A stretch of DNA of 47,260 nucleotides from Cyanophora paradoxa CCMP329 (lineage: Eukaryota > Plantae > Glaucophyta): NCBI GenBank assembly GCA_004431415.1, contig QPMI01000481.1, positions 1-47,260 on the forward strand. The letters are read 5' to 3'. Under the pieces are notes generated by a model. It did not search any database. It was not told the DNA's origin and saw nothing but the letters and a program-made list of their open reading frames with translations. Shown in pieces: positions 9,444 through 47,260 of the stretch (position 1 is its first letter; each line of letters starts with the position of its first letter). The translations under genes were made by a program, and so were the position numbers.

Positions 9444-10426
9444 GAACCTGTGGGCTACTTGAAATTCACTCACATCTTGCCCTTCCTCAAGGACGGGCTC
9501 AAGGTGCGGCTCTTCGTTGCCAAGATCGACGTCTACGTCGTCGACGAAGGGTTCTTCTTCGTCGGCATCGGCATTCTAGTGCCCAAGGTGCGGCAAGATG
9601 AACCTCCCCCCTCCCCTTCCCCCCCCCCTCGCCCCACGTCGCCCCCGCAGTACACCCTCCTAGCTATATCTAGATGCCCTACCCCGCCCCGCCTCCGCTC
9701 CGCCCCCTCCGGGCCCCCGGTGGGGGTACGCCTTCGCCGGCGTCTTCGGACAAGGTACCCCCCGGTAGCTGGGGTCCCTTGGTCCGACGGCGCTGGTGAG
9801 GGCGTACCCCCCTCGCGCGGGCCCCGATCGGGCACTAGCTCTAGATGCCCCTACTTACCCGCCCCCTCCGGGCCCCCGGTGGGGGTACGCCTTCGCCGGC
9901 GTCTTCGGACAAGGTACCCCCCGGTAGCTGGGGTCCCTTGGTCCGACGGCGCTGGTGAGGGCGTACCCCCCTCGCGCGGGCCCCGATCGGGCACTAGCTC
10001 TAGATGCCCCTACTTACCCGCCCCCTCCGGGCCCCCGGTGGGGGTACGCCTTCGCCGGCGTCTTCGGACAAGGTACCCCCCGGTAGCTGGGGTCCCTTGG
10101 TCCGAAGGCGCTGGTGAGGGCGTACCCCCCTCGCGCGGGCCGCGTCGGGGCGCTAGCTTCATAGCTAAACGCCGTACCCCTCTTCAGTTGGGCCACATAC
10201 TGACTCCATTTCAGTTGGGCGAAGCTGAGGAGCCCTCGGACGTCGTCAAGTTGGTTGTGCTTGCCGAAGGCAAAGCTGACGAGGACGTGCTGGGCAGAAA
10301 GGTAGCTCTGTCACTCCCCTCGAGGTTTATTCAGTTCATTCACGTCTAGCGTGCAGATCCCCGAGGATATCACGGAGTTGCCTGGCAACGAAGAGCTCAC
10401 TACTTTCAGTGGGCTGGAAGGCCGAG
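9444..10426 (+). pseudogene. Captured multi-exon gene fragment of unknown function inside the CACTA element (also at ~4420-5375 and ~21413-22385)
   Basis: In-phase AG/GT-bounded exons 9444-9587 (EPVGYLKFTHILPFLKDGLKVRLFVAKIDVYVVDEGFFFVGIGILVPK), 10188-10301 (LGHILTPFQLGEAEEPSDVVKLVVLAEGKADEDVLGRK) and 10357 onward (IPEDITELPGNEELTTFSGLEG). Confidence 0.6.
9670..10157 (+). repeat. Intronic tandem array of three ~159-bp fold-back units (also at ~4640-5107 and ~21640-22115)
   Basis: Units start CTAGATGCCC at 9670, 9841 and 10000. Each contains a ~90-nt imperfect inverted repeat GGGGGTACGCC...GGCGTACCCCC. Confidence 0.9.
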
Positions 10427-11779
10427 TGGTCTTCTGGCCCAAGGCCCTCCTTTCCCTCCTCCGCAGTGCTAGCTCTAGATAGTGTGCGGCCGCTAGGGCG
10501 GCGCTGTGTTGCAATTGCAGTATTCATGCATGGCAACCCCGGCGCTGCAGGGCAGGGTGCACGGGGCGGGGCGCGGGCGCCCGGGTGCGCGAGCCTGCTA
10601 TTTTTAGCTTCTCTGGGAACTCTTCTCTTTGTCGTCGGAACAATTGCTATTGCTATCTGAACAATTGCCGTTGCTCTCGGGACTCCTGATTTGGGATCTC
10701 CATGGGCTACACAACTTAACGTTTCACTTGATCATTAGTTCCCAGACCTACGAAGTTTCCAGTATGGAGAATTTGGAAGTTCTGTGTCCAGAGACCGTAA
10801 GACTATCTGATTCCGAGCTATTGGAAATGGGGGGGGCCCACTAGTGTATCTCGTAATTTCCTGCAATTGCCGGCTTCGTGACGTCGACGCTGGCTTCGTG
10901 CGTCACAGCTTGATTATTTTTTCTTACGCTTCGTGCGCATGCGTCCACTCGCCATCGACTCGCTGACGACTCGCTGACGATCGCGACTCGCGATCGAGCT
11001 CGCCCGGCCTCGCCGGCGCCGTCGAGGCGCGCCTGCAGTTTGATTTTTTTTAGAAGCGTGAAGCATTCGCTCAGCGGCTAACTTCAGTAATATACAAGCA
11101 GGGGGCAAGCCCCCCGCACCCCCCATTTACTGATGATCGATATCATGACCGTCGGACATAGCAATAGCGAAGCATGTATACGTAGATCTGCAGCTGAACT
11201 TCAATCGAGAAACGCGCAGCGTCGACGTCAGCGCCATATGCATACGCGCGCGTCGCGTCGGCCGCGCCGACTTCGATCTAGACTCTCAGATCTTGAGCTT
11301 CGTTACTAAGTTAAGATCTTTGGCTAGCTTTAGATCGGAACTGTTACAATTAGCTATTATTGCAAGGGGGAAAGAAGACCGAAGGTCTTCCCCCTTGCTT
11401 CCCGTTCCCTCGCTTCAGCCAAAAGTTTTCTATGAGGCCGTTTGCGAGGTCCAGTATGCAACACCAGAAAAAAATGGTGCTTTATTCGCGTTCCGATTGG
11501 CTGGGTGAACCGGTCAGCCCTCGACTTTGGAGCGTCAAACTCGAGGGGAAAAAGTGGTTTTCGAGGGGAAAACCAGCTTCTGTCTCACGTGCACTCCTCT
11601 AGCTTGTTCTACGTATACTGTATAGATCTGGGCTCTCCGGGCTTCTCCCTCGCGCGGCGCGGCGCTGCATCATAGCAACCACTTCTCCTTAGCTGTCTCC
11701 TCTAGTTTTAAAAATTCCCCTTCCTCGCACTGCGCCGCGTACGCCGCACGGTCCGCTTGCGCTGTTAACGTTGCCTAGC

Positions 11780-12240
11780 TACGTATACGTATACGCCGCT
11801 GATCGCAGCCGAGCACTGCGGCACGCCCGCTCAGCACGCGGCCGACATATGCATCGAGCTGATACGTATATACCGCAGAACCGCGTGCGCGTGCCCGCAG
11901 CCGAGTACGCCGGCCGGGCCGGGCGCGCGCGCAGTCGTACGCGTGCTGCGCGTGGATGCGCAGCCAAGATTGAGTTTGCACCGCAAAACCGCTTGCGCCG
12001 CTGCCAAGCTGCGCCGCTGATCGCAGCCGAGCTTGGCCGGCCGCCGGGCGTGCAGACTGTACTCTCTTGCTGCGCTCAGCACGCTGCCGACATCGAGTTC
12101 ATACCGCAGAACTGCTGCTCGACTGCCCGCAGCCGAGCACGCCGGCTGGGCCGAGTGCCGCGGTGCTCTTGTTGCGCTCGGCACGCCGCTGCTGAGGACC
12201 CAGTCCATCCCGTCCGCGGCTGGCACGTACTGCCGGTCAT
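11780..12240. repeat. Degenerate internal repeats (copy at ~23744-24205)
   Basis: CGCTGATCGCAGCCGAGC (~11797, ~12015), ATACCGCAGAAC (~11870, ~12101) and GCCCGCAGCCGAGyACGCCGGC (~11893, ~12125) each occur twice. Confidence 0.55.
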
Positions 12241-13137
12241 ATATAATATGTGTCTATCTTTACTACTTCAACCTGCCGCGCGCGCTGGGCCGGGATCAAT
12301 CTACATCTGCCCCGTACATGTTCGTGCCACTACTACTCTTTCATTAGATCCCGATTCCCCCTTGCACCCCGGAGCGCCAAACGCGGCCGGGCCCTAGTAT
12401 ACTTCGATTCTTGCTCAGTTTGCCAGCTGCAGAACGACGTCGACGGACCGGACGTTTTCAGGACAAAGAATTCGAATAATCTTCCTCGGCTTCGTACGCG
12501 TCTTCCCGTTTGTATGACCATACATCTAGGAAAATCTTGTACCGCGTCCGCGAGAGACTGAGCATCCAATATGCATTTAGAGACGTACTAGCTCGTGTTT
12601 AGTGCTTCGGTCTCTCGCCAATCGCTCCCCTAGTTGTAGTGTTACTTGAGTGTACGCTCCCCCATTCTGTACCCTCTTACTTGAGTGTACCCTTGCCGAG
12701 TGGACCCCCCTGTTTCTCCTCCCCCCTCCCCCGTGACCGCGCGCGGTTGCGGGCCCCCGTCACGGCGTTTAATAATTAGTACTTCGCCAAAACTGCCACT
12801 TTAGCGGCTGGTAAATCTTTAGTAGGTCAGTCTTCGCAGGGCTTTTGTATGGCGGAGACGGGGCTACCCCTACAAATTCTCGGCTTTAGCAGGCGGGAAA
12901 TATTTAGTAGATCGCCCAAAAACTTTTAGTACTATAAATATGCAACCCACTAAATATTTCTAGCTCTCCAGTAAGTCCCGTAAGTCGTAAGTGGCAACCC
13001 TACCCGCCGGCGCCGGCGGGGCTGGAGCCTGGAGTCCCTGCAGCTGGACTCCCTGGAGCCTGGCGGGCAGTGGCGCCCGGCCCCACTGGCGGGCCACTGG
13101 CGGCCCCGCAGTTACCGCCGACACTGTGACAGCGGCC

Positions 13138-14301
13138 GAAGCGGCTGGCAGATCTTGCCATGTGTAAATTAGCTACCGTACCGGGTACCGGTGGGTTCTA
13201 GTAGACTCCTGGTACGGAACAGTCCTAGTAACTGCCGCCTAGTAACTGCCGCTACGAGTTATGGGCCTTAGGCGGAGTTTCCTGGCGAACTGGGGCCAAA
13301 CTCCAGGGGCCTGAAGCGGCTGGCAGATCTTGCCCTTATGTAAATTAGCTACCGGGTAGGTTCTAGTAGCCTCCTGGTACAGTCCTAGTAACCGCCGGCT
13401 AGTAAGTTAGCAGTAACTGCCAACAGCAGCTTTTATATAGCATGTGAAATATACCGGCACGTGCCCAATCGGAAAACACTGGCATTTTCAAGTCGAATTA
13501 GTACGGGGACCTCGACGGTCCCAGCGCAGTACTAATTTGAGTCAAAAGGTGTTCCCAGTCTAAAACTCGGCCGAGTTTTAGTCAATCGACTTGACTCGGA
13601 AAAAGTTTGTATGGCGGAAACTGCGCCTAAGGCCCATAACTCGTAGCGTGCCAACAGCAGCTTTTTAGCCTAGTAGTACCGTAGTACGGGGACCTCGATC
13701 GCGACGGTCCCAGCGCTGTACTAATTTGACTTGGAAGGTGTTCCCAGTGCAAAAACTCGGCCGAGTTTTAGTCAATCCACTTGACTCTTGGCAGCCCCCG
13801 CGGCCGGAGTGCTGCCAGCCTGTGCCAGGCTGGTGTCTAGAGCAGTGAATTTAAAATTTCACTTTCGCAAATTGCAAAATGAAAATTTACATATTAATTT
13901 TCAGAAAACTTTCACTGCCAAAAAGAGCACTGAAAACTTTCAATATTTGCAAGGGGGGTACCGTTGAAGCTGCTTTTTGGGGGGGTGTAACCGGGTGTTT
14001 CATGATCACGCCAAATTGGAGGGTCAAACACGCCAGAAGACGAGACGAGACGAGAAAGTTTTCGAAAGTTTACTGAAAGTTTTCAGGGTGCTTCTGGAAT
14101 AATAAAATTTCACAAACACTTTTTTTTCGATCCGTGGGGCCGCCATGGGGCATGATCGATCGGAATTATGTGGAACGGGCGGGATTCGAAGGCGTGATGG
14201 TCTAGAGACTGTGGCCGGTAATTCACAAAAAAAAGACTTGACTCGGAAAACGCTTGTACATGTATGGCGGAAACTGCGCCTAAGGCCCATAACTCGTAGC
14301 G
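13138..14301. mobile_element. Outer, left-truncated copy of the same MITE family, with nested insertions
   Basis: 13138-13249 and 13649-13787 align with the internal sequence of the inner MITE. The right TIR ends at 14301. A ~448-bp insert (13788-14235) is flanked by the 9-bp duplication ACTTGACTC. Confidence 0.65.
13250..13648. mobile_element. 399-bp CACTA-like MITE (CGCTA termini, TGC TSD) inserted in an older copy of the same family (duplicate at 25220-25618)
   Basis: TIRs CGCTACGAGTTATGGGCCTTAGGCG...CGCCTAAGGCCCATAACTCGTAGCG. TSD TGC at 13247-13249 / 13649-13651. The empty site GTAACTGCCAACAGCAGC is seen inside the element (~13413). Confidence 0.8.
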
Positions 14302-14762
14302 TACCGAACGATAAGTCGGTAACCCGAGGCCGGCCGTACGGTAACTAGTAAGCTTCCACTGTCGGTGTCGGTGTCGCAAATCGATATCGGTGTCGGTGTC
14401 GCAAATCAAGGTGCGCTGCCGCAGTGCTTGCCAAAGTTGGTCGAGGTGACCATAAGTGCGCACACGTGCGTGCACCTCGACGTGCTGCTAAGTTGTGCTA
14501 ACTGCCAACTTCGGACTCCGGGACGGGACGCCAGCTGCAGTCGCTGATCTTTTCACAGACTCGCTGTCAATCATGTTCTCGTGTGCGCATGCGTCGACAG
14601 CGTATCATAGTATGCAAATTATGTAGATGTGCCGTAATCCGGATCGACGCAGATGAAGCCGGAAACTACCTCAATTCGATCTTCGCGTCAACGACTCCCC
14701 CGCGTATCCCATCTCATTACTCCTTATTACTGTATTCGAAAGCCTTGACGAGTTGTACGCAG

Positions 14763-16613
<1,851 letters not shown>

Positions 16614-32429: not shown

Positions 32430-32762
32430 GCAGTGCGAAAGACAGAGCTAAGAAGCCCGCTAAGAGCGGGCTGGAACAGACGAGCTGGGGCCTGGCTGGA
32501 AGTGGTTTGCGCTGTGCGCCGAGCACTCGGGCAAGCGGGCTGATTGAAAGCGGGGCCTCTGAAGCTAGCAGGCGCTTTGGATGCCTTGGAATGTCTGAGC
32601 GGCGGCCGGCGAGCGAGCGGCGGGTGACTGGTGGTCTCTCTATGGGGTACAGCGCTGCAGAAGGCCCAGGACGGATTGCCGGAAGCCTCTGACCCAGGCG
32701 CGCGATTCCCGCACAGCTCAGCTGCGTTTGGTTCTCCAGCAGAGCGCACGTGCTCAGAGGCG

Positions 32763-35153
32763 ATGAGCGATGACGCGCCCGAGAACGTCGGCGCACAAAC
32801 AGCTGCAGCTAGCGCTGCTTCGCATACGGATCTACATGCACCAGAAGCAGCGCCATTCGCATTCGATCGGCTCCCGCACGGCGTCCTCGCGGAGGTCCTG
32901 CAGTTCTTGGGCCTGCAGCACGCGGCCGCGGCGCGCGCGGTGTGCAGGAGCTGGCGGGAGGCCGTCGAGGCGATCCAGTGGCGGCGGCTCGACGTAGTCG
33001 GCAAGGGCCTCATGCGCCCAGAGCGGCTTTTGAAGCTCCTTGTCGATCCTGGCGTCGAGGAGCCCGAGGGAAATCCCGCCGTCGGCGCCAAGCGGCGGTG
33101 GATCCGCGTCGCCCCCGGCGCGTCGCTGCGCGTGGAGATGGGCTCCGAAGCGTACGCGAAGGCGTCGCTCGCAAAAGACTGGGCCGACTGGTTCCAGACG
33201 GCGGTCGCCCTCGTCGCGGCGTGCGTCGCGGCGGCGAGCGCCGGCCTCGGCGAAGTCGCCATCGAGTGCGTCTACCTCGTGGGCGGCGACGCCGCCGCTC
33301 TGGAGGCGCTGCTCCTCGCCCTCCTGCCTCCCTGCGCCGCCGCCTGCCCGGCGCTACGCAGCTTCAAGCTGCTCTGCCACTTCGCGGACGGCTCCGGGGG
33401 CGTGCCGTTCCCCCTGGAGCCCCGCCTTCGCCCCCTGTCGAACCTGGAGGTCTTCGCCCTCCCCCGCTGCTGGTACGTCGACCGGCCCGCCGCGGACGCC
33501 ATCGGCCGGTCCCTCCCCCGCCTCAAGCGGGTGCGCCCCAGTGCAGTACCCCCCATCACCCCCCGCCCCGCACCTTCCCCCTTCAGATGTTCACGCGGGC
33601 CGCGCAGCTGGGGATCACCTTGGGCGGCTTCGAGGCGGCCGGCGGCCTCGCGGGCGCGGCCTCCCTGGAGTACCTGAAGGCCAGGAGCAGCGGCGGCTCG
33701 GCCGGCCGGCCCCACTGCCCCGACGCCGGCCCGCTCCTCGAGGGCCTCGCTTCCGGACCCGCCGCCCTCTCCCTCAAAGAGTCCGTGCCGTACCCCCCCG
33801 GCCTCGCAAAAGATCTCGGCCGACTCCGCCCCATGGCCAGGCTCTGCTTCGAGGGGCGCCTCTCCGCCGCCGCCCTGCGCGTCCTCCCTCGCCTCGCCGC
33901 CCTCGAGCTCCTCAGCGGATCCTTAACGGTCCGCCCGTACCCCCACCCTCCAAACTTACAACGCGCCCTAACGGTACCCCCCGCCCCCGCGCCCCGCAGC
34001 TCGGCCCCGATCTGGACCGGGCGGACCTGGGTGCCCTTCGGCTCCCCCCGGCGCTGCGGGGGCTGGGTACGCTGCGCCTCAGCCGTGAGCTCGAGCGGGA
34101 CGGCGCGGCGCTCGCCGGGGCCCTCGAGGGCCTCGCGGGGGCCCTCGCCGCGTGCCCCAAGCCGTCGTCGTCGCCCCCGGCCCTCACCCTGGTCCTCGGT
34201 CCGCCCGCCCGCCCGCGCCGCGGTCCGCCCCCGGCCCTTAAGCTTATTACGTAAAGCGGACGCGGCAGAGGCGCCGCCGGAGGCGACCTGGACGCTCGCT
34301 GGCCTCTCGGCGCTGGCGCGGGCGGCCCGCGGGCAGCTCTCGCTCGAGCTGCCGGTCGACCTGCGGCCCGGCCGCCCCGCGGACGCCGCCGCCGCGCTCT
34401 CCGCCGCCCCGCTCCGCAAGTGCGTATCTCGTCCATCGTTCCTAAAGCCTGGATTGGAATCTATATTGTTCCTAGCTATATATTCTGCATCCGTCCTCGT
34501 ATTGCTCCGTCCGATCTCCTACATATATATTCTAGCTATATTGCTCCGCAAGCGCGTATGTACCCGTCCTCGCCGGAATCTAAAGTAAAGCCTTCGCTAT
34601 CTAAAGCCTGGAATCATACATATGTTGCTCCTAGCTATCCTGCATCGCTCCTAACTACTTTCGCGGCGCGTGGGCACATATACCACTCCTTCCTGTCTTC
34701 ATATATTGTTCCTAGCTATATTTCCTGCATCGCTCCTAACTACTTTCGCGGCGCGCGGGCACGGCGCAGGCTCCTGCTCGTGGTCGACGTGAGCGAGGAG
34801 GCGGCGCGGGGCGGCTGGGCGGACGGCCTCTCCGCCTTCGCCGGCTGCAGCTGCTCGGGGGGGCTCGAGGTGCGCCCTCGATCGCCGGCTGCCCCTAAGC
34901 TTTAAGCAGCGGATGCACGTGCAACAGGCCTAGGCTTAAGAATTGATCTCGAATTTATATTTAGTTTATAAGCAGCAGGCTTAAAATCTAGAATTGACAT
35001 CGATGGCAGATCCGGCTTCGCGCCTTGCGCCCGTACGATTCCACGAACATGTACATCGTGGAGGAGGAGGCCGCCGGCCACGCGTTCCGCCTCGGCGTGT
35101 GGGCGGCCGTCGCGCGCGCCCTCCCGGCGGCTCGCATCCTCACGAGCCCGTAG
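32763..35153 (+). CDS. F-box protein with LRR-like C-terminal region (multi-exon)
   Basis: FDRLPHGVLAEVLQFLGLQHAAAARAVCRSWREAV is an F-box motif. LRR-like segments CPALRSFKL, LSNLEVFAL, LPRLKRLGI and LPRLAALELL follow. The last exon ends LTSP* at 35153. Confidence 0.85.
34440..34760. repeat. Intronic AT/CTAG-rich direct repeats
   Basis: ATATTGTTCCTAGCTATAT, CTAAAGCCTGGA and CCTGCATCGCTCCTAACTACTTTCGCGGCGCG are each repeated within one intron of the F-box gene. Confidence 0.7.
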
Positions 35154-35268: not shown

Positions 35269-35367
35269 CCTAGTGAGCGCTAGCTACGTAGCTAGAGCTC
35301 ACTAGGTTTGTTTATTTAGACCCCACCTTTCCAGGCGGTCTTTGTTTGTTTATTTAGACCCCACCTT
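35269..35367. repeat. 38-bp palindrome ending in CACTAGG plus two 24-bp direct repeats; candidate terminus of the virus-like element
   Basis: CCTAGTGAGCGCTAGCTACGTAGCTAGAGCTCACTAGG (35269-35306, one mismatch). GTTTGTTTATTTAGACCCCACCTT at 35306-35329 and 35344-35367. CACTAG at 35300. Confidence 0.8.
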
Positions 35368-35664: not shown

Positions 35665-36443
35665 CTAACGATGCTCAGGCTCTAACTGAATGCTGTACCC
35701 CCCGCTGTTACTGCCCGAACCTTCCGAACTTGCGTAATTCGGCCTCGCCCTGTACCAGTGGCTGGTGTCGTCCATCCATTCGCGTACCTCCCTCTGACGC
35801 TTGAGTGACTCACGCTGCTCGGGGTAGGGGAGGGGGGGCCTTCGAGGCGGGGTGGGGAAGGGGGTACGGTGGCAAAATTCAGCCACTCGGGGGTATGCCG
35901 AATTCGCCGTGAACGATCCTCTGCGGTGTGAAATACCGGTCGCTGCTCACGGCCAAGTGGAAGAACGCGCTCCTGAGCCCGGAGAGGAAGCGTGGTTGCA
36001 TGAATGGCTGCTGGAGGGACTCGTCGCGCCAGGGGCTACGAAATCAATGATACGCTGCTGTACCTGCGCGGGCAGGGCAAGGATCTGGCTCTTGCGGTTC
36101 GCAAAGGCCGTCCACAGCGCTTGCAGGTCGGCCCAATCGCCGTTCAGATCCCTGCGTTCGCGCCTCAGGTACGATCTCGGGTTCTCTGTCATACCCATCA
36201 AGCCCGCGGCCCTGATCATCTCCCTGTCCGGGAGCTCTCGCTCGTCGTGGAATTCGTCTCTAATCCAGCGCACAAGGTAGAGCACGCGCTCCATGAAGTT
36301 CTCCGCCGGCGAGCCGCCCCCTGAGGACGTGCGCCTCCCTCCAGCACTGCGTTCGCATCCTCCAAGTCCACGTTCCGCTGTCGAATCTCCCCGTCCAGGT
36401 CGCCGTTGTTGTACAGCACGTCGGACTCGCGTGTTCGCGCCAT
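35665..36443 (-). CDS. Intronless hypothetical protein B (frameshifted in the assembly), paralogue of the neighbouring gene
   Basis: Joining frames gives MARTRESDVLYNN...FMERVLYLVRWIRDEF...LWTAFANRKSQILALPAQVQQRIIDFV.WRDESLQQ...LSGLRSAFF...IPPEWLNF...KRQREVREWMDDTSHWY. Confidence 0.7.
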
Positions 36444-36477
36444 GCTCGCGGCTCGGTGAGAATTTATACCTGTACCC

Positions 36478-37173
36478 CTACTCGCGGTCGGGGTACCTGT
36501 CGCCGGGCATCAGCCTCGCGCGCTTCCGCATCTCCGCCTCCCCGGGTAGCCAGTTCTTCGGGTCGTTGCTCCACTCCTCCCATTCGCGTATGTCCCGTCT
36601 GACGTCACGCGGGGCGGGGGCGTTTATCGGTGGGGCGGGCGGGCTGGCAGGGCCTGGCGCGGGGGTTGAGGCCCCTGTTCCACGAGTACTCGGGGTACTC
36701 TTCCCATCCCAGGGGTACCAGATTCATCGGAATTGGCTCAACTTCGAATTGGGGCTTTTTGACGTGATAATCATAGTTTGTGACATACGCCGTCACAGCC
36801 GAGCGCAAGCGCGAGAGGTCGCGCAAATTTACGTCGTCCCATTGCGAGTCCCTTGCCTTCGCGTACCACTCGAGGATTTGCATGCGAATGTGGTCCGGGA
36901 GGGTCGAGAGTATGCTGAGCTTGGAGCCCAGGGCGAACCAGATGCGCTTGAACTCGTCGATAATCCTGCCCTCGTCGTGGCTCCGAACGTAAAGGGCCCC
37001 GCCAGAGTTGTAATGCGTGTCTAGCCACCCTGCCCGGGCCAGCTCTAGCACCGGCCAGGGTTGGCGCTGTCGATTCGGTCGCGAGGCCTGCTCTACCACC
37101 CAGCGTCTAAGTCCTTGACCTGATCTATGAACTGTGCGATCACGTCCCTGGGCGCTTCCTCTGCATCCGACAT
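36478..37173 (-). CDS. Intronless hypothetical protein A (frameshifted in the assembly)
   Basis: MSDAEEAPRDVIAQFIDQVKDLD...RIWFALGSKLSILSTLPDHIRMQILEWYAKARDSQW...LSRLRSAVT...VPLGWEEY...RRDIREWEEWSNDPKNWLPG...DRE*. Confidence 0.7.
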
Positions 37174-37223
37174 TTGCAATTGCACACATCAAGAAATTCT
37201 AAACGCTACTGCGAGGCTACGCT

Positions 37224-37880
37224 ATGCATACCGATACAAATTGCGAGACTTTGCAACAGGGGAGCGCAGCGTGGCACGCGGCGCGCCGTGAAAAACTAAC
37301 TGCATCTAATTTTGCGGCTGCGTGCGGCATAAACCCCTGGAAATCCAGGGCCCGCCTGTGGGCGGAGCTAAGCGGGATAGCGGAGGAAAACAACTTTGAC
37401 AACCCTGCCCTAACCTATGGGCATGACTATGAGCCCCTCGCGGTCTCTCTCTACAAAACGTCGAACAACAACGTGGACGTGCAACATACTGGATTGCACG
37501 AACATAAGGAACTGCCCTTCCTGGCGGGCAGCCCGGACGGGCTGATTGGAAGCGATCGTATACTTGAAATAAAATGCCCCTACAAACAAGAACTCTACGA
37601 AAAGGTCCCAACTTATTACATGCCCCAGCTCCAGGGCCTGCTGGACATAACGGGCCGCGAGTGGGCCGAACTTTTTTGCTTCACTCCTCTGCGCGTGCAA
37701 ACGTGGTACGTCAGACGGGACGAGAGGTACATCAAGCTCATGAGGAAGTGCTTACATCTATTTTGGATGCACGTCAAGGAGGGCACGCCGCCCGAGCCCT
37801 ACAGCGATCGAATGAAGTCAGAGAACCTCAGCGAGGAGCAGGCGGCGCTGCGCGAGTTTAAGTCGTACGCCCTCCTCTAG
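37224..37880 (+). CDS. YqaJ-like viral recombinase / lambda-type PD-(D/E)XK exonuclease
   Basis: Intact, intronless 218-aa ORF with QGSxxWxxxRxxxLTAS, GxxxEPxA, GSPDGL, LEIKCP and YxxQxQG motifs; lower GC than the host genes. Confidence 0.92.
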   Translation: MHTDTNCETLQQGSAAWHAARREKLTASNFAAACGINPWKSRARLWAELSGIAEENNFDNPALTYGHDYEPLAVSLYKTSNNNVDVQHTGLHEHKELPFLAGSPDGLIGSDRILEIKCPYKQELYEKVPTYYMPQLQGLLDITGREWAELFCFTPLRVQTWYVRRDERYIKLMRKCLHLFWMHVKEGTPPEPYSDRMKSENLSEEQAALREFKSYALL

Positions 37881-37930
37881 TGTCCGGACCTTTCCAATAC
37901 TCTATATGATTATTGGGAGGGTCCGGACAC
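37880..37930 (+). terminator. 20-bp stem hairpin directly after the YqaJ stop codon
   Basis: GTGTCCGGACCTTTCCAATA, 11-nt loop, TATTGGGAGGGTCCGGACAC; fully paired with 2 G-U pairs on the + strand. The terminator role is inferred. Confidence 0.6.
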
Positions 37931-37950
37931 GTCTCTTGGTCAGACTACTT

Positions 37951-38002
37951 CTGTCCCAGGTCTTTGGAATCTTAATATAAATTTTCCCGGGACCCGGGAC
38001 AG
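37951..38002. terminator. Second hairpin, ~35 bp downstream of the convergent gene's stop
   Basis: CTGTCCCAGGTCTTTGGAA...TTCCCGGGACCCGGGACAG, an imperfect 19-bp stem with an AT-rich loop. Confidence 0.45.
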
Positions 38003-38035
38003 GGCTTGGTCGGACTCACCGTAGCTTGGTGTAGC

Positions 38036-41000
38036 TCAGGCCCAGGCCGGGTAGGCGAGTCTGTAATGAATCAGACCGCGCAGGATTTGGTTGAGCTGCT
38101 CGGTGCAGGGGGGCGGGAAGGCGAGGCCGCGGAGGGCCATAGAGACGTAGCGGAAGGGGTGGGGGAGGCGGCCCCTGTTATCCCACATGGCGTCCACTAT
38201 GGCGTTGTGGACCACTTGCTCGGAGAGGGGACGGGCCTGCGCTCACCGTTTCAGGGCCCTCAGCAGCCCTCGAAGATGTTGGAGTTTGCGTGCACCAGCG
38301 GGAGGGAGGGCTGGGACGGCGGCGGCGAGCCCGGGCCGAGCCCTGGGTGGCGAGGGCCTGCGAGGGCGCCGGCTCCAGCTCCATCTCGAACATACCGCCC
38401 TCGACGTCGACGGTCACGGGCGGCGAGGCCGGGATCGCGCCGGCCTGCTGCGTGGCGGGGACCTGAGCCGAGAAGTTCTCGAGCCGCCACTCGCGGCAGC
38501 CCTGGCACTCACCTGGACGAAGACGGTGCGGTTGGCGACGGGCGGCGTCGGCAGGGCCTGCGCGGGGCGTCACTCACAGAAGCCGAAGGCGCCGGCCTTG
38601 TGGGGCGGGGCGTCGGGGTCGCGGGGCGTGCTATAGGCCTCCGAGCCCTCCGATTCAGAGTCACTCACCGGGCTGAGAGGGTGGGGTGAGAAGAGGCCGA
38701 GGCGGGCCTTCTTGGCGGGCAGGAGGTGGGAGCCGTTGAGGGCGCAATCGGCGCCGTGGGCGCACCTCTCTCCGTAGGTGGGGCAGAGGGCCGGGGCGAG
38801 GGCGCCGGAGCCAAGGGCGCCGGAGCCGAGGACGCCGGGGGCTGGAGGAGGCGGTGAGAGGGGCCGAGGAGGAGAGGAAGGGGAAGGGCGCGGGCACCGG
38901 CGCCGGGACGAGGCCCTCCTCCAGCAGCCGCATCTGCGCCTCCTTCGCCTTCTCGTCGATGCGGGCCTCGAACGTCGCCCAGTTGAAGCCGACGGCGTCC
39001 GCCTCCGCCAGCTCGGGGAGGCCGTGCTCGTCGAACGCCAGCGCGGGCCGCCCGCTGAAGCCGAACGGGCGGGGGGCGAGAGCGCGTTGTCCCCGACGCC
39101 CCAGACGGCGCTGAACGCCGCATCGTCCCAGCGCGCCTCCGCCTCCGCCTGGCCCTCGTCCCTTGCCTCGTCCACCTCCTTGGCGGAGAGCGACCCGATC
39201 TTGATGATGGAGGCCTGGATCAGCACAAACTCGCGCTGGAAGAATTGGACGAGCGGGATGGTAACTGCGGGAGAGGGGTGAGCGGGGAGAGCGCGGGGCG
39301 CAGGCCAAGGGCGGGGGCGCAGGCCAAGGGCGGGGCGGACGCACATTCGATGCCGTAGGCCACCTCCTTGATGTAGCGGCCCCGGCGGCCGATCTCCTTG
39401 GCCAGCATGCTGCACTCCTTGCGCGCCGGGTGGCCGTGGCCCCACTCCATGGCGATCATCGCCTTCGCCAGACGGACGCCCTCGATGTGCCACTCGTCCA
39501 TCAGCGCCTCCAGCTTGGCGCAGATGCGCATCCAGAAGAAGACGCGCTTGAGCTTGTCGCGGTCGAATTCGGCGTCGCCGCTCTTGCTGCCCCAGTCGCG
39601 CAGGTCCGTCTCCTCCGCCTTCTTCACCTTCTCGTACCAGCACTTGATCTTCTCCGCCTGGCGCTGGAACTCGTCCGCCCGCGCCGTGAGAACGTCCGAC
39701 TCCTCCTGCGCTCCGAGGGCCCGGGGTCAGGGAGGAGAGGCGGGCTAAGCGGGCGGCGGCGGACCGTGTGCGAGAGCTCGCCGACGATCACGGAGATGGC
39801 CGCCGAGAGGATCTCACGGGCGCGGGCCGGCCCGTTTGGGTGGCCCTCGCGCAGAACCTCCTCCAGCTTCAGCACGGCCGTCCGCGCGAGATCGCGGTGG
39901 CGCTGGCGGGTCTCGTCGCTCCGGCCCTGATCCACGAGAAGCTGGAGCTGGGGCCGCATGCCGGAGTCGCAGACGCTGGCGTACTTCAGAAGGGCCGCGC
40001 AGGAGAGCACCTTCTGCACGCTGACCAGCCAGTACGCGTAGCCCAGCGGGCTCTCCGCGCTCGGGTTCTCCCCGACCTGCGGACGCGACCTTAGCGCGCG
40101 CAGGGGCAGGGGAAAGGGGAAAGGGCGGGCTCTCGCGCACGTAAATGTCATCGGCGCAGGAGAGGAACATGTGATCAACGACGTCGAAGAAGCCGCCGGA
40201 CGGGAGCGTGCCGACGCCGTGGTACGCGCCTTGGATGGTCTCGCCGGCGCAGATGCCGGCCTGGACGGTGACGGTGTACTGCGAGGCCGGCGGCCCTCCT
40301 TCACGTAGACGAAGTTGAGGTCGTACTTCTTGGCGTACGTCGGGTTGATGCGCTTGGTGACGATGACGTAATCGCACCGAACGCCGAGGCCGGACGGGCT
40401 GGCCTTCTCCTTCTCCGTCACCGACGCCAGGCACTGATCCCGCGCGATCAAGAGCTGCAGCGGCCCGCGCGTGAGCAAGCGCGGGCACGCGAGCGCAGGG
40501 AAGGGCCCTCACCCCGTGGGCGCCGCCGCTGCCGGATTTGAGGTCCGCGAGGAACTCCTTCTGCTCCGGAGTGCCGGAGAAGATCGCGCGCGGATGGAAA
40601 TCGCGATGGAGCGCGATGCTGTTGAAGCAGCCCGCCGCCGCATTGTCGGACATCAGCAACAGCGCCACATCGCCGTGCGTGAAGCCGTACTTCGCCTTCA
40701 CATGCTCCGGCAGCTCGTGAATGCTGTAAGGCACGATCTGCGCGCGGGCACGCGAGCCGGGGCATGTGAGCCGGGGCCGAAGCGGTGCGGGCGAAACCGC
40801 GAACCTCGTTGAACTTATTCACCGGCGTGAACTGGCCCTTGGTCTTCAAGCGCTTCGGGTGGCCGTCCGTGTTCTGGATCTTCTTCAGCCCGCCGAACGG
40901 CTCGAAGCGCGGCACGCCGGCCGAGTTGAACACGCTATCGCAGGTCATCGCGTTGAGCGCCTCCTCCGCCGATAGGCTGCCGAGATCGCGGGCTATGCTG

Positions 41001-41056
41001 TCCTGCTCGCCGGGCTGCTGCTGCTTCGCGCAGGAGCGGAAGGTCGCCGCCTGCAT
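38036..41056 (-). CDS. Large multi-exon hypothetical protein (~800 aa), divergent from the helicase gene
   Basis: Coherent GT-AG-separated exons: MQAATFRSCAK...VNKFNE | IVPYSIHELPEHVKAKYGFTHGD... | LLIARDQC...KRINPTYAKKYDLNFVYV...FFDVVDHMFLSCADDIY | VGENPSAESPLGYAYWL... | EESDVL...DRDKLKRVFFWMRICAK... | VTIPLVQFFQREF... ending ...LIHYRLAYPAWA*. No family recognised. Confidence 0.75.
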
Positions 41057-41360: not shown

Positions 41361-44300
41361 ATGTCTCGGCTCGCGCTCCCTCCGGAGATCCCGGCTAAGC
41401 TGGCGAAGAACACGCTGTACGACGTTCTCTGCGTCGGCGACAGCTTCGGCGTCGATTGACGGTTTTCGAGGCCGGCATCAGCGACCAGGCGAAGGAGGCG
41501 CAGGCGCGTGCGCTGGAGGATGGCATGCAGTTCAGCCCGAGCAGCAAGGATGTGCTGCGCAAGACCGAGCTGGCCGAGCGCAAGCGCAAGCTCGCCGCGG
41601 CGCGGACTTTGAACGCCGAGGGTGCCCCCGGCCCGTCGGTGCAGTTCTCCATCGACTCCGTCCTGTCGCGGCTGCGGCTCGCGGAGGTGCTCGCTGCCTC
41701 TTTCTCCTCGCGCGCCCGGCTCGCAGCGGCTGAGGCGCCGCCGCGCTCGCAGGACGCGGACGTGCGGGCGATGCACGCGGCGCTGAACATGACGGAGGAG
41801 AACTTCGACACACCGAGCAAGCCGAAGCCCGGGCGCGATTCCGACGCCCGCCGGCTGTTCGCGGCGCAGCGCCTGCGGCTGCTCATGGGCGCCGTGCCCC
41901 GGCACATCGCCAAGGGCGAGTGGCGCACGATTGGCCTGCTGGCGGGCCCGGAGGAGTTCTACTTCAACCGCATGGCGGAGGCGGCCCCGCACCTGCTCTG
42001 GCTGCTGGTGCTCAGCTCGGACCCGGCCTACACGCCCGAGGTGCGCCCCGGCCGCCCGTGCAGCCGCGGCCGCCCCTCCCGCCGACCCCCGCCGGCCCGC
42101 AGAGGCTGGCGAAGGGCATCATGGGCGTCGAGGCGCGCTGCATCATGCGGAACAGCCGCGCGTTCATCACGCGCCACGAGAGCTCGGCGGTCTGGGGCGA
42201 GCGGCCGGACACCGGCGTCCTCACCGACGCCTACGCCATCCGCATCGTGCTGGAGGCGGCCTGCCGGACGTGCCGGGACCGCCACGGGCGCCAGGGCATC
42301 TGCGCCTTCGACCTGGTTCCTGAGTTCGAGGTGCCCGGCGTCACCATCGGCGACCGCGTGCAGGTGCGCCGTTTCTATTTGGATGCTATTTAGATGCTAT
42401 TTAGACTATTTAGATGCCATTTAAACCCCCTCGCAGGTCATCCGCCGGTGCTCGATGCCGGACTCGCACGGGCGGCCCATGATCCACGGCGCCGTGAAGT
42501 ACGTGGTGCCGCGGCGCACCCTCGCCCTCACCTTCTTCGTCCCCGTCTTCGACAAGGCGGCCGCCGCCGCCGCCGCCGCCGCCTCCCGCCCCCGCCCCAT
42601 GCTCGCGGCCGCGGAGTCCTCGGATTCCGACTCGGATTCCGAGGCGGAGCGCGAGGCCGAGGCCGCCGCCGCGGCCCGGGCGCTGGACTTCACGGAGGAG
42701 GAGCTGGAGCGGGCGCGGAGCCTGCCGCGCGCCGGCCAGGCGATGGCGCGGCCTCCAGGCGGCGATCGGCGAGGGCGACGGCCTCCGCCTCGGGCGCCCG
42801 GGCCGGCGGCAGCATGATCACGGCGGAGGGCCTCGCGCGCGCCATGCGCGTGGCCAGGCCCAGGCCAGGCGAAGGGCAAGGGCAAGGGCAAGGCCGCCTA
42901 CATCGACCTGCGGTTCGAGGAGGAGGAGGCGGGTGCCCCGGCGGCGCGGCGCGATCTCGGCGAGGAGATGGAGGCGGCGGCCCCCAAGGCGGCCGGTGCG
43001 CCCTCCCCGCCCCTAATTTCTGAGCCTAGGGCGTTCCAGAGGCGCAAAGGAATGACCCTGCCCACAGAGGAGGAGCTGGAGGCCGAGCGCGAGATGGAGA
43101 TGGAGGCCGCGCTGGCGGCGGCGGCGGACGCGAAGGCCTCGCGCGAGCTGGAGGTGGCGGAGGAGTACGCGATGGAGCTGGAGCGCGAGCGCGAGCGCTG
43201 AGGGCGAGCCCGATGCGGAGCTGGCGGCGACGGTGGAGGCGGGGGCGGGGGACACCTTCGAGCCCGAGCCCCCGTCGACGAGTTCTACCCCTCCGCCCTC
43301 CCCCTCCCTCGACGGCGCCCGCCGCCGCCCATCGAGGAGTTCTCGGACGACGAGCCCGGCGACGCCGGCCCCAGGCCGCCCCTCGTCTCCCCCCGCCGCC
43401 CGCCGCCCCGTGCCCCCCGCCAGCCCCGCCGCCTCCGACGTCTCCTGGCGCCCGAGCGGCAACCCCTCGCCTTCAGTCCCTTCCGCCCCTCGCAGCCTCG
43501 CAGCGCCCGCCGCCCTCCGTCCAGGTACCCCTCGCCCGCCCATCCCCTCGCCGCCGGGGGCACGCCCGTCGCCACGCCCGCCTCCTCCCTCGGCCACATG
43601 CCCCTCCGCCCCCTCCGCCCCCGCGCCGGCCGCCTCTCCCGCCGGCCCAGCAGCGGCGCGAGCGCGAGCGGCAGCTGCTGCGCGATCAGCGGCGGAGGCG
43701 GAGGCGGACCACGACGACGGCCAGGCGTCGGAGAGCGACGGCGAGCCGCGCGCGCCACCAGGCTGGAGCTGCGCGGGCGGAGCTGGCGGTGCAGCCGCGC
43801 GAGGCGCCCGAGATCGACATGTCCAAGTACGACGACTGACAACGTACAGCAAGGACAACAAGTCCAAGAAGGAGGCGGCCATTCAGATGCGCTCCGCCTC
43901 TTCGTCAAGAACAACGTGCGCCCCGCCCCCTTAGCTGCGCGCCCCGCCCCCTTAGAGGCGGAGCGGCCGTGGCCCAGCTGCTTAAGGCGCTGGGCCCGAG
44001 CCGCCTTCGGCCGGTGCGCCCCCCTCCCCGCGTTCGAACCCGCTAACCCCCTTTTGCCGGCGCAGCGGATCGTGCGCCAGAGACCCTACGGCCCGAACTC
44101 CCCGCCCACCTTCTACGTCGAGCTCCCGAACCTCTTCGTGTACGACCAAGGTCAGCGCGAACAGGCACGCCGGCGCGGGACGATGAAGGAGGTCATCCAG
44201 CTGCTGGCGATGACCTTCCACAAGACCTACGAGTCCAACCCCGGCTCCTTCGAGTTCACCTTCTCGAAGGAGGTGCTCTCGGGCGGACGCGCACGTTCGT

Positions 44301-46493
44301 GGAGGAGTCCCTCCAGCTCGAGACGTCTGCCCCGAGATGCCCGTCATCCCCGGCTTCGCCTTCGCCTGCGACACGCGTGCGCCGCCCGTACCCCTGCGCC
44401 CCGCCCCGTACCCCCGCCGACGCCCCTTGCGCAGATTTCGTGGTGCGGGCGCCGCAGGACAGCACGGGCAGCGCCTGCGTCCTCGTCATGACGCACGAGG
44501 AGGCACGGGAGCGGTACGCGGGCTACATGAACACCTGCTACATCCAGGGCGCCTGCCCGCGGCATCGAGGAGGCGACCGAGACCTGCGACTGGGCCCACC
44601 GTGTACGGCATGCTGCACCCCTTCATGCCCAACGTCGTCAAGCACCTGGCGGACAACGGCTACGTGACGGCGACGAGTTCGGCTACGCGGCGGCCGTCTC
44701 TACGCCTTCAACCTCGTCGGGCCGTGGAACTTCTGCGACAAGCCCGTCTTCGACCGGGAGCCGCGCGCGGAGATCGAGCCGCCGTCCGAGGGCGCCATGC
44801 TGCAGTACTGCGGCATCATCAAGGGCCAGTCGGGCACAGGCAAGTCGATGGTGACGCAGATCATGACGGAGTGCTGCCGCCGGGCCGCGTCTGCGTCTAA
44901 CCGCCCCTCCAAGGGCTCGGCCTTCTCGGAGCACGGCGGCGAGGAGGCGATCTGCATGGTGATGGCGGAGGGCCTCGACCCTAAGGCCTGCTCGGAGGAG
45001 GAGCTCAAGATGCGCTCCGGCGACGCCTACTCCCGCAACTTCAAGAACGTCCGCGGCGACGATGTGCGCACCAAGCGACGCGCAAGGTGCTTGTCATCGT
45101 CTGCAACAGCTTCCCGCAGGTGCGCCCGTTCCCTGCCCCCTTCCCCTTCCCGCGCCCTTTCTCACTTGCCCCGGCGCAGCTCGAGAACCGCATGCTCGAG
45201 TTCTTCGCCCGCGCTCGTCCTGATCCCCCTCGACCACAAGCCGGCCAAGAAGCGCACCTACCTCCACTCCGACATCCGCGAGAACGAGCTGCGGCGCTCA
45301 TGGTCGCGGCCTTCACTTCGCGTGAAGATCATCCACGCGCTCTCCGACGGCAAGGCCTCCTGCATCCAGCGCCGTCGAGCCGGCGTGGCTCGGGCGCAGC
45401 GCCTCGGCTTCTGGCAGGAGACGGCCTCCTGTCCCCTCACCCGCTTCATCATCGCCCACTGCGCCGTCGACCCCACCACCTACGTCGCCGCCCCGACAGC
45501 GGAGGGCTAACATGACGAGCGTCGCGGGCATCGTCGAGTACATCGCGCGCACGGAGGGCCCCGACACCTCCGCCGCCGTCGGCGCCGACATCGAGAACGG
45601 CGGCTGGACGAGACCCTCGCCGCTTCGGCTCCTGTGCCGCCCCTACTCCTACAAGCTCGGCGGCGTCTGGCAGACCTACATCCGCGGCATCGTCCCAAGG
45701 CCCCGCTCTCCCTCGGCGAGAGCCAGCCGCGCTGGAGGCGATCGCGATCCCCGTCGCCCAGTTCAAGGACCCGGCGCCCGACGTCGGGCCCTTCCTCGTC
45801 AAGCCCCACACCAAGGCAAGGGCAAGCGCACCCGCAACTCGGCGCCGGCCTTCCTCCCGCCCAGCCCCCCGCCACGGCCCCCCAGCAGCGCCCCGGCCAG
45901 CAGCGCATCGACGAGATGCTGCCGCGCCAGGTCCGGCCCCGCGTACCCCCCGCCTTCCCTCCCGTACCCCCCTCCCCCCGCCCCCCTCCTGATCCAGGGC
46001 AGGGTACCCCGACGAACGGCGGCGCGGGCACCGAGCGGCTACGGGAGCTCGGCCTCCTCCGCGAGCGCCGACGGCCCCAGCCCCCTCCCCGGCCCCGGCG
46101 CCGTCCTCACCGCGATCCAGGGCTTCGGGGCCAGCAGGAGGCCGAGCGGCGGGCGCTGGCGGCGCGCCAGGCGCGCGAGGCGGAGGAGCGGCGCCAGGCC
46201 CTCTGGGCCCAGCGCCTGCAGGCCACCATCGCCTTCCGCGCCGAGCTGGACTCCGGCTTCCGCGCCGGCCAGATCGCCGGGCGGAGGCCTCGGAGCGCTG
46301 GCGGGCGTTCGAGGCGGAGTCGGCGGGCTGGCGAAGGCCTCGGCTACAGCTACCGGCGCCGTGCCCTGCTCAAGGACTACGCGTCGCGGCACAGGCGCGC
46401 GAGGCCTCGCGGGCGGAGATCGACGCGGCGGAGGAGCAGGCGGCGCGCGAGGAGGCCGAGGACAACGCGCGCTTCCGGCACCTGCACCACTGA
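41361..46493 (+). CDS. Large intron-containing D5-like (poxvirus D5 / phage P4 alpha type) superfamily-3 helicase, frameshifted in the assembly; may be two genes
   Basis: Walker A GQSGTGKS (44824-44847), Walker B-like CMVMAE, B'-like LKMRSGDAYSRNFKN, motif C LVIVCNSFP, FFARALVLIPL and C-terminal YIRGI. The N-terminal part has PriCT-2-like LMGAVPRHIAKGEWRTIGLLA and Zn-ribbon-like CRTCRDRH...CAFDL...RRCSMPDSH. Several GT-AG introns. Confidence 0.8.
42375..42425. repeat. 11-bp tandem repeat in a helicase-gene intron
   Basis: CTATTT(A/G)GATG repeated about 4 times. Confidence 0.8.
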
Positions 46494-46542
46494 GGCCCGA
46501 GGCGGTATTTTTTCTCACTCCCTCCCTCAATTCGGTCCCGCG

Positions 46543-46732
46543 ATGGCCTTCGAAGCTTATCCTGCCCACTACTCGCTAGGAGCCCTGGCCGCGACCCTCA
46601 CCTGGCTCCTCGGCCGCACCACCCACGGCCTCGGCGGTCATAGGCGTGGGCTTCGGCTACGCCGCCAAGTCCCTCTACGCCCCCGGCGGCGCCTCGCAGG
46701 CGGCGGCCGGCATGCGCCCCGCCGGGCGCTAA
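46543..46732 (+). CDS. Small (~62 aa) putative two-helix membrane protein (one frameshift)
   Basis: MAFEAYPAHYSLGALAATLTWLLGRTT / ASAVIGVGFGYAAKSLYAPGG...GR*: two hydrophobic Gly/Ala-rich segments. Confidence 0.45.
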
Positions 46733-46828: not shown

Positions 46829-47260
46829 ATGTCGAGCGCGGTAGAGAAGCTGCTTGCACCGTGTTCAAATCGGATTCGCGATGCAGCAAGATCGGCGAGG
46901 CGGCGAGGCTAAGGGCGGGCGGCGGCGGAGGGGCCCAGGGTGAAGGCGGCGGATCCCGCGCCGCCGTCGCTGAAAACGATCAAGGGGCGGGCAAGGCAGG
47001 AGCGTGGGGCGCTGCCCCTCGTGGCGATCGCGCCGGGGCAGAGGGAGGCGGCGCACGCGGCGACGGCGGCGCTCCGCTGGCCCGCGGCGGCAGGCGGAGG
47101 CCTACCCGTGCCTGGGCGGGGGCTGCACCGCCGGCCCGGCCGCCCCTACGCCGTGAGCGCCTACTTCGACGAGGCCAACCGGCTGAGCTGCCAGGAGCTG
47201 TGCGACAACCGCATGCGGCGCGCCGTGGACGGGCACCTGCCGCTGCTGGTGGCGCTGGCG
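46829..47260 (+). CDS. 5' part of a hypothetical gene running off the window
   Basis: ATG at 46829 (MSSAVEKLLA) after a T-rich leader. Coding-like terminal segment RPYAVSAYFDEANRLSCQELCDNRMRRAVDGHLPLLVALA. Confidence 0.45.

Follow-up and report, generated by a model that had tools for sequence, protein, structure and literature searches.

The window analysed here is a 47,260-nt stretch of the Cyanophora paradoxa CCMP329 genome (assembly GCA_004431415.1, contig QPMI01000481.1, positions 1 to 47,260 of the forward strand). Towards its right end lies a GC-rich gene that is frameshifted in the window (41361-46493, plus strand) and that a preliminary description, made from the letters alone, had taken for an intron-bearing D5-like helicase with primase accessory domains and no visible primase catalytic core. 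We find that this gene is spliced and intact in frame, that its C-terminal half carries the NTPase motifs of a superfamily 3 (SF3) helicase, and that it is dispersed in many copies through the C. paradoxa genome together with a fixed head-to-head neighbor and a family of truncated derivatives. The gene and its parts, all on the plus strand, are:

41361..46493, plus: helicase gene, about 1520 aa, 9 exons and 8 introns (6 seen, 2 inferred), from the spliced window compared with the copy P0011 and with RNA contigs
41361..42560, plus: N-terminal region of about 330 aa, by prediction largely helical and then a short beta part, with no archaeo-eukaryotic primase (AEP) motif
41687..41752, plus: intron 1, GT-AG, 66 nt; joint in RNA-type runs X15, X17 and X19, none in DNA run X3
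42041..42102, plus: intron 2, 62 nt; joint in the three RNA-type runs
42262..42469, plus: Cys/His cluster, possible zinc ribbon (C259-x2-C262-x3-H266 ... C272, C297, H303)
42364..42436, plus: intron 3, 73 nt, inferred; GT-AG ends, removed in natural gene models
42560..43800, plus: linker of about 400 aa, acidic and rich in Ala and Pro, from sequence
42996..43067, plus: intron 4, in-frame, 72 nt, predicted, may be retained; GT-AG ends, 24 extra codons relative to P0011
43860..44560, plus: region in the D5_N/collar position, assigned by position and by eye only
43916..44065, plus: intron 5, 150 nt; joint in the three RNA-type runs
44377..44434, plus: intron 6, 58 nt; joint in the three RNA-type runs
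44824..45212, plus: SF3 ATPase (Walker A 44824-44847, Walker B 44953-44970, motif C 45096-45116, arginine finger codon 45210-45212)
about 45120..45179, plus: intron 7, 60 nt; joint in the three RNA-type runs
45415..45703, plus: predicted RFX-type winged helix, the best-modelled segment of a poor model (predicted local distance difference test, pLDDT, 50-64)
about 45931..46002, plus: intron 8, 72 nt; joint in the three RNA-type runs
46129..46493, plus: charged tail, probably helical, from sequence; varies among copies

A spliced gene with an intact reading frame

Spliced joints and indels were read by placing public sequencing contigs on the window, from three RNA-type runs belonging to three studies and from one DNA run. 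Six GT-AG joints are found in the three RNA-type runs and none in the DNA run; spliceosomal introns, as the preliminary description had proposed, are truly removed from the helicase transcripts. Two further introns are inferred. At intron 3, the pieces of the RNA contigs break off at 42359 and pick up again at 42433, and intron 4 is not among the RNA joints listed.

The window can be judged against P0011, an error-free, full-length natural copy of 1519 aa. When spliced, the window shares 1450 identical residues with this copy, with 27 mismatches and 50 indels, mostly net deletions. Among the 12 indels listed out of 107 in the comparison with the public contigs, 9 fall in the coding region; all 9 recur in the DNA run and in each of the three RNA-type runs, and every one of them falls at a break in the alignment of the spliced window to P0011. 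Because the listed coding indels are common to DNA and RNA contigs and match these breaks, we attribute the frameshifts to errors of this assembly, which was built from PacBio RSII reads and is probably haploid (PMC6704402). The helicase gene is real and its reading frame is intact; the frameshifts are not lesions. Copies of the gene are carried as C. paradoxa gene models, and several natural copies form one unbroken model of 1.4-1.5 kaa. The substitutions listed in exons 1-3 (from 40 of 208 rows) are synonymous in 9 of 16 cases, a weak signal (with 28% assumed as the expectation, p is about 0.016).

Reading the locus as a pseudogene in decay, or as a pair of unrelated genes taken for one, would accommodate the 50 indels of the window and the lack, among the RNA contigs listed, of one that covers the whole linker. 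The preliminary description had itself raised these prospects. In place of real frameshifts and no transcript we find assembly errors and spliced RNA contigs, and the notion of two unrelated genes largely gives way before natural copies that are single, uninterrupted models. With all 9 listed coding indels shared between DNA and RNA contigs, this explanation is largely refuted and hardly credible.

The helicase transcript runs on beyond its stop codon: all three RNA-type runs splice just past it (46498-46579), into the region of a short downstream hydrophobic open reading frame (ORF).

The helicase half and the N-terminus

The SF3 motifs on which the preliminary description had based a D5-like helicase are borne out. 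Walker A is a GQSGTGKS-type motif (GxxxxGKS/T) in 21 stored copies, and a Walker B-type CM(V/I)MAE (CMVMAE in the window) and a motif C of IVCN(S/G)FP are present in both subtypes of the helicase, which are described below. In hhalign comparisons, VIACNNPP in a phage primase-helicase is the counterpart of motif C; Walker B was put out of register by hhalign and is assigned by position. The arginine finger had been read as ARA where RR was expected, a reading that has to be abandoned. Sixteen stored copies read EFF(A/S)R, the finger Arg is paired by hhalign with that of LYDR in the phage primase-helicase, and an indel of the window falls directly after the finger Arg codon, which makes 'ARA' a frameshift artefact. 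The phage homolog has DR, so an RR pair is not required.

Four weak routes agree in placing the C-terminal half, by its sequence, as a very divergent SF3 helicase of the D5/P4/NrS-1 type. Its closest ESM Atlas clusters are DUF5906/NrS-1-like (0.92); PHROG 1156 matches it with E=0.0013; 17 of 18 weak phage tblastn matches (E 2-5) fall on the ATPase regions of primase-helicases; and hhalign against a profile of four phage D5-type proteins, three of which had been chosen as matches beforehand, gives a probability of 95.8, with a score that none of 40 shuffles reaches. No DUF5906 or TIGR01613 model in Pfam or NCBIfam matches the helicase. The protein can be assigned to SF3 and is expected to work like a D5-type helicase, without being a D5 primase-helicase proper; the helicase is very probably active.

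The segments around the ATPase are less firmly placed. The region preceding it fits D5_N in position and size, has no Pfam match, equals its score against the four-sequence profile in 9 of 40 shuffles and falls where the fold model is unreliable. Beyond the ATPase, the model of the predicted winged helix superposes on RFX5 (VIA-align Z 6.1, root-mean-square deviation (rmsd) 3.5, 82 aa) and on the P4 origin-binding domain 1ka8 (Z 4.0, rmsd 4.2, 86 aa), both below the Z of 8 that marks the tool's caution level, and the segment has no sequence-level match in Pfam or in profile comparison. A winged helix after the ATPase would fit the domain order of D5 (PMC9611036). Foldseek searches of PDB and BFVD gave no match at E<=0.001.

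As the preliminary description had noted, no primase domain is detectable in the gene at the level of sequence. The AEP motif I (hhhDxD/E) is absent from residues 1-335, where only EDAD and RDAD occur, neither on a hydrophobic strand, and the same residues have no match in Pfam, PHROG (E<0.01), phage proteins, ESM Atlas or fold libraries. The fold model of the N-terminus (pLDDT 33.5) is mostly helical and too poor to judge an RNA recognition motif-like palm, and VIA-align matched it to generic helical bundles only; on such models, the protein may contain a highly diverged primase fold. An upstream AEP exon is excluded for lack of space, because RNA contigs start at about 41240 and the gene on the opposite strand begins at 41056. 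A reading of the N-terminus as an HUH nuclease (GRPMIHG) was rejected, as it has one His only.

The CxxC-x3-H motif, the acidic and Pro-rich linker and the charged tail of the preliminary description are all present in the sequence. Among the stored copies, 12 have CRTCRDRH for the first of these (42262-42285). The cluster of Cys and His is genuine and may be a zinc ribbon. The further identification of a UL52/PrimPol zinc ribbon and a PriCT-2 helix did not find support. Neither whole copies nor short exon pieces match PriCT-2 or Herpes_UL52 in Pfam at E<=10, the PriCT-like exon has no usable ESM Atlas match, and the fold model is too poor to decide. The Pfam null is a weak one: its filters drop faint matches, and Pfam misses even the clear SF3 core. 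A likeness of the cluster to PrimPol/UL52 ribbons and of the exon to PriCT-2 was neither confirmed nor excluded by these tests.

Copies, partner gene and extent of the unit

Copies of the helicase gene lie on 41 C. paradoxa contigs, 23 of them with the helicase core and 18 with the 3' part only, which holds the winged helix and the tail alone. Sixteen of these 18 share foreign upstream sequence joined to the helicase near residues 1154-1189, and a common breakpoint region in so many copies indicates that the helicase-less derivative has itself spread. The helicase occurs in two subtypes, A and B, whose N-termini are 96% identical and whose helicase halves are only 53-80% identical (78% in the ATPase, 53% in the region preceding it), a contrast that points to module exchange; both keep Walker A, Walker B and motif C, as well as the finger Arg. 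The unit shows dispersed near-identical copies, conserved gene order and deletion derivatives, the features by which a mobile element is recognized. They point to an element rich in introns and viral in ancestry that has spread recently. That the unit is a mobile element of viral ancestry we consider probable. The preliminary description had offered two outcomes for the gene, domestication or a primase supplied in trans. The first sits badly with a high-copy, dispersed unit with truncated derivatives, and the second is favored on inference.

The neighboring features that bear on the unit are:

38036..41056, minus: partner gene, about 800 aa, spliced, from RNA joints and copies; no family match
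37221..37880, plus: YqaJ-like viral exonuclease/recombinase gene, intronless, 55% GC; Pfam YqaJ E=6e-30
37880..37930, unstranded: strong DNA hairpin directly after the YqaJ stop; z -8.1, 0 of 200 shuffles as stable
37951-38002, unstranded: weaker hairpin; z -2.5
35269..35367, unstranded: approximate left edge of the high-copy region; a 38-nt palindrome and then a 24-nt direct repeat

The partner and helicase genes diverge from a common 300-nt gap, and the partner adjoins the helicase on 21 of the 23 core-bearing contigs (within three gene numbers; on one by adjacent accession). The partner and the helicase N-terminus share a 39-aa motif (hhalign, 46% identity over 39 columns), which is visible as an 82% inverted DNA repeat (38913-38972 against 41465-41524) and is missing from some partner copies. 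The partner protein has no Pfam, PDB or phage match, and neither an hhDxD/E nor an HUH motif. This arrangement raises the prospect of a cryptic primase in cis, in which the N-terminus or the head-to-head gene would be a highly diverged primase or primase-polymerase and the two genes a split pair, as baculovirus P143 and LEF-1 are a split helicase and primase. The common gap, the constant association, the beta-rich N-terminal part of the partner and the shared motif are what such a pair would show. Set against them are the absence of hhDxD/E from both proteins, the lack of Pfam, PDB and phage matches, and profile comparisons with phage Prim-Pol halves that stay within the range of shuffles (with shallow profiles), and we regard a primase in cis as improbable.

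The partner has an HxD motif at residue 128 (HRD), with an HGV about 110 residues on, in a beta-rich region; this recalls the 2-oxoglutarate-Fe(II) dioxygenases of TET/JBP type, a likeness that has no Pfam or PDB support here. A CCCH-like cluster lies near its C-terminus. Minus-strand joints (CT..AC) at 37688-37756 and 37797-38019, antisense across the 3' end of YqaJ and the hairpins, are probably in the 3' untranslated region of the partner gene.

Contig depth, which is not equal to copy number, rises in two DNA runs from about 200-600 to at least 2,600 at the bin boundary 35292/35293. This roughly tenfold step at 35.3 kb is followed by high depth up to the end of the window. Over YqaJ depth reaches 10,000-16,000, compared with about 3,000 in the partner gene, and the YqaJ gene, which has a lower GC content than the helicase gene, may belong to a separate, higher-copy unit. 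Between 35.3 and 47.3 kb, Pfam and PHROG detect no capsid module, integrase or tyrosine recombinase; the right end of the unit lies beyond the window.

These surroundings bear on a further explanation, in which a host-captured helicase sits in a subtelomeric or segmental repeat spread by recombination, serving the host or merely riding with it; the Y' elements of yeast are helicase-bearing repeats of this kind. The GC content and intron signals of the helicase gene are host-like, the gene is expressed, its copies are mosaic between the subtypes, some contigs hold tandem copies, and the part of the unit within the window shows no mobility enzyme, all of which would suit a host repeat. A viral YqaJ among the neighbors would not, nor would a helicase-less derivative with its common breakpoint region on 16 contigs, which is typical of non-autonomous mobile elements, and the searches made found no orthologue in other eukaryotes. 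A host repeat is, in our judgment, distinctly unlikely.

Where the high-copy region starts on the left, two intronless ORFs on the minus strand (35950-37198) have no family match and share a faint helical motif (pairwise E=0.003). To the right of the helicase, another gene of the unit begins at 46829-47260 (plus strand); its continuation, present in fused form in model P0016, matches nothing in Pfam.

Relation to known elements and proposed replication

Searches returned relatives from C. paradoxa itself. A phmmer search of 1.84 billion representative proteins, with a 126-aa query that includes a frameshifted stretch, gave nine copies from the C. paradoxa genome and one unrelated repeat protein, and word-seeded protein searches gave C. 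paradoxa proteins only. IMG/VR holds no related locus for the helicase or the partner. A scan with YqaJ found one distant locus (L005); a metagenome match (L006) was discarded as a chance hit, a repeat-like protein among phage-type ORFs. The element is not described in the literature searched, which was mostly open-access. The preliminary claim of a novel architecture is weakened: mriyaviruses have SF3 helicases whose AEP domain is degraded or replaced (PMC11253617), polinton-like viruses have stand-alone ones (PMC12220804), and a primase-less SF3 architecture alone is not new, whereas the element itself appears undescribed.

The SF3 primase-helicases of the D5/P4-alpha family include vaccinia D5, NrS-1 and phage P4 alpha (PMC9611036). 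Like them, the helicase has Walker A, Walker B, motif C, an arginine finger and a predicted C-terminal winged helix, in a domain order that fits theirs. Unlike them, it has no primase domain, a 400-aa low-complexity linker, a charged tail and eight introns, and it is too diverged for the D5_N, DUF5906, Pox_D5 and TIGR01613 models. Papillomavirus E1 and SV40 large T are primase-less SF3 initiator-helicases that act in the nucleus and use host Pol alpha-primase. The helicase resembles these in having no primase and a single arginine finger without an RR pair; it differs from them in SF3 clade and in origin-binding fold, and the analogy is one of mechanism only.

In mriyaviruses, the AEP domain of the SF3_hel1 and SF3_hel2 helicases is degraded or replaced by an unrelated N-terminal domain, a YqaJ-like PDDEXK nuclease is present and nuclear replication on host polymerase is proposed; the helicase gene of a Pleurochrysis virus measures about 4.56 kb (PMC11253617), close in size to the one described here. 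By these descriptions the locus is similar, with an AEP-less SF3 helicase of a length like those of Gamadviridae and a YqaJ-like nuclease nearby, and Mriyaviricetes-related regions have been reported in a Glaucocystophyceae assembly (10.1101/2025.04.19.649669). It might be an endogenous virus of mriyavirus-like type, invaded by introns, with rolling-circle replication in which an HUH endonuclease encoded elsewhere in the element nicks the origin and no primase is needed, a scheme that the strong hairpins in the unit would also suit. Unlike mriyaviruses, the unit has introns and host-like GC, and its part within the window shows no HUH, capsid or viral late transcription factor genes. Neither the helicase nor the partner protein has an HUH motif, the helicase tail offering a terminal HLH only, and the absence of either gene from IMG/VR also speaks against such a virus, which we consider unlikely.

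Mriyavirus-related regions, polinton-like viruses (PLVs) and giant endogenous viral elements are reported in C. paradoxa or its class (10.1101/2025.04.19.649669; PMC12220804; PMC12344493). Stand-alone SF3 helicases are known in PLVs, and among PLV-type elements in the same host class 40 scored with D5_N, 15 with PriCT_2 and 8 with Prim-Pol (PMC12220804). Shuffling of replicase domains is common in polisuviruses (10.64898/2026.10.13.758929; 10.64898/2026.06.19.733378). The many PLV-type elements of the class could plausibly have acted as donors, and they offer another place from which primase might come in trans. The unit is like protist PLVs, including those of C. paradoxa, in that these are dispersed, multi-copy elements with SF3 helicases that are sometimes stand-alone (PMC12220804). 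It is unlike them in several respects. The introns described for PLVs in passages of PMC12220804 are group I introns only, whereas those of the helicase are spliceosomal; PLV helicases are caught by D5_N/COG3378 models, while neither D5_N nor TIGR01613 detects the present one; and the part of the unit within the window shows no capsid module or integrase. Processed spliceosomal introns are known in mirusvirus genes, and in having them the helicase resembles viral-type genes of mirusviruses and pandoraviruses (PMC12768974), although no mirusvirus hallmark is seen in the window. The same source takes introns in endogenous nucleocytoviruses as a sign of decay and silence (PMC12768974); in contrast, the intron-rich gene described here is intact, spliced and recently multiplied.

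The reading that we prefer, at about even chances, is of a mobile DNA element, derived from a virus and rich in introns, for which the gene encodes the origin-binding replication helicase and which would use the host's nuclear primase-polymerase in trans. Such an element would have lost its AEP domain. From what is known of the family, the helicase would form a ring and unwind DNA 3'-5' in an ATP-driven manner, while the predicted winged helix would bind the origin; it would act in the nucleus, because its mRNA needs the spliceosome. Its N-terminus and linker may recruit host Pol alpha-primase, as E1 and large T do, and full-length copies may mobilize the helicase-less derivatives in trans. 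We lean slightly towards priming that is borrowed in trans; an alternative source would be the Prim-Pol proteins of co-resident PLVs (PMC12220804).

Several observations weigh against a mobile element with a D5-type replication helicase. The three RNA-type runs are identified as RNA only by their splice joints, and among the RNA contigs listed none bridges the N-terminus to the helicase or spans the whole linker. The profile searches and AlphaFold models that the preliminary description had suggested as checks gave little: D5_N and Pox_D5 match nothing here in Pfam, NCBIfam or profile comparison, no more than PriCT_2 or UL52 do, and both AlphaFold2 models, built from 6-7 near-identical sequences, are of low confidence (pLDDT 34). 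The tandem partner copies on some contigs fit spread by recombination as well. Within the window, the 12 kb of the unit show no gene for an integrase, a transposase, an HUH nuclease, a capsid or packaging, the right end lying beyond; no terminal repeats, target-site duplication or empty site are established, and the left edge is approximate. Finally, searches that are weak for distant relatives found none outside the C. paradoxa genome that could show selection over time.

A broader interpretation, which is tentative and rather doubtful, would make the unit a member of an undescribed class of large, capsid-less or fully intronized, expressed DNA mobile elements in a glaucophyte, in which host-recruiting domains on the helicase replace the primase. 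Autonomous copies, recombining helicase subtypes and non-autonomous derivatives would together represent an intermediate between virus and transposon that intron-blind screens have missed. Endogenous-virus screens often call intronless ORFs, and one screen for endogenous DNA viruses states that introns were not considered (10.1101/2025.04.19.649669); here we have an intron-rich, host-like gene for a viral-type helicase, invisible to Pfam, that is spliced, has kept its frame and has multiplied recently. Should the unit still be moving, a mobile element can evidently gain introns, and such elements are being overlooked as a class in protist genomes. C. paradoxa, which can be cultured and is probably haploid, would also be a setting for studying the workings of a D5-type helicase that has lost its primase.

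Immediately to the left of the high-copy region, a low-copy, intron-bearing gene (32760-35150, plus strand) resembles, by eye, a host gene of F-box/leucine-rich repeat type. Further left, between 395 and 30316, are tandem duplications with units of about 5 kb and about 12 kb at 94-98% identity, along with minisatellites of 40 nt and 152-159 nt and long CT runs, which as far as seen have no relation to the helicase unit.

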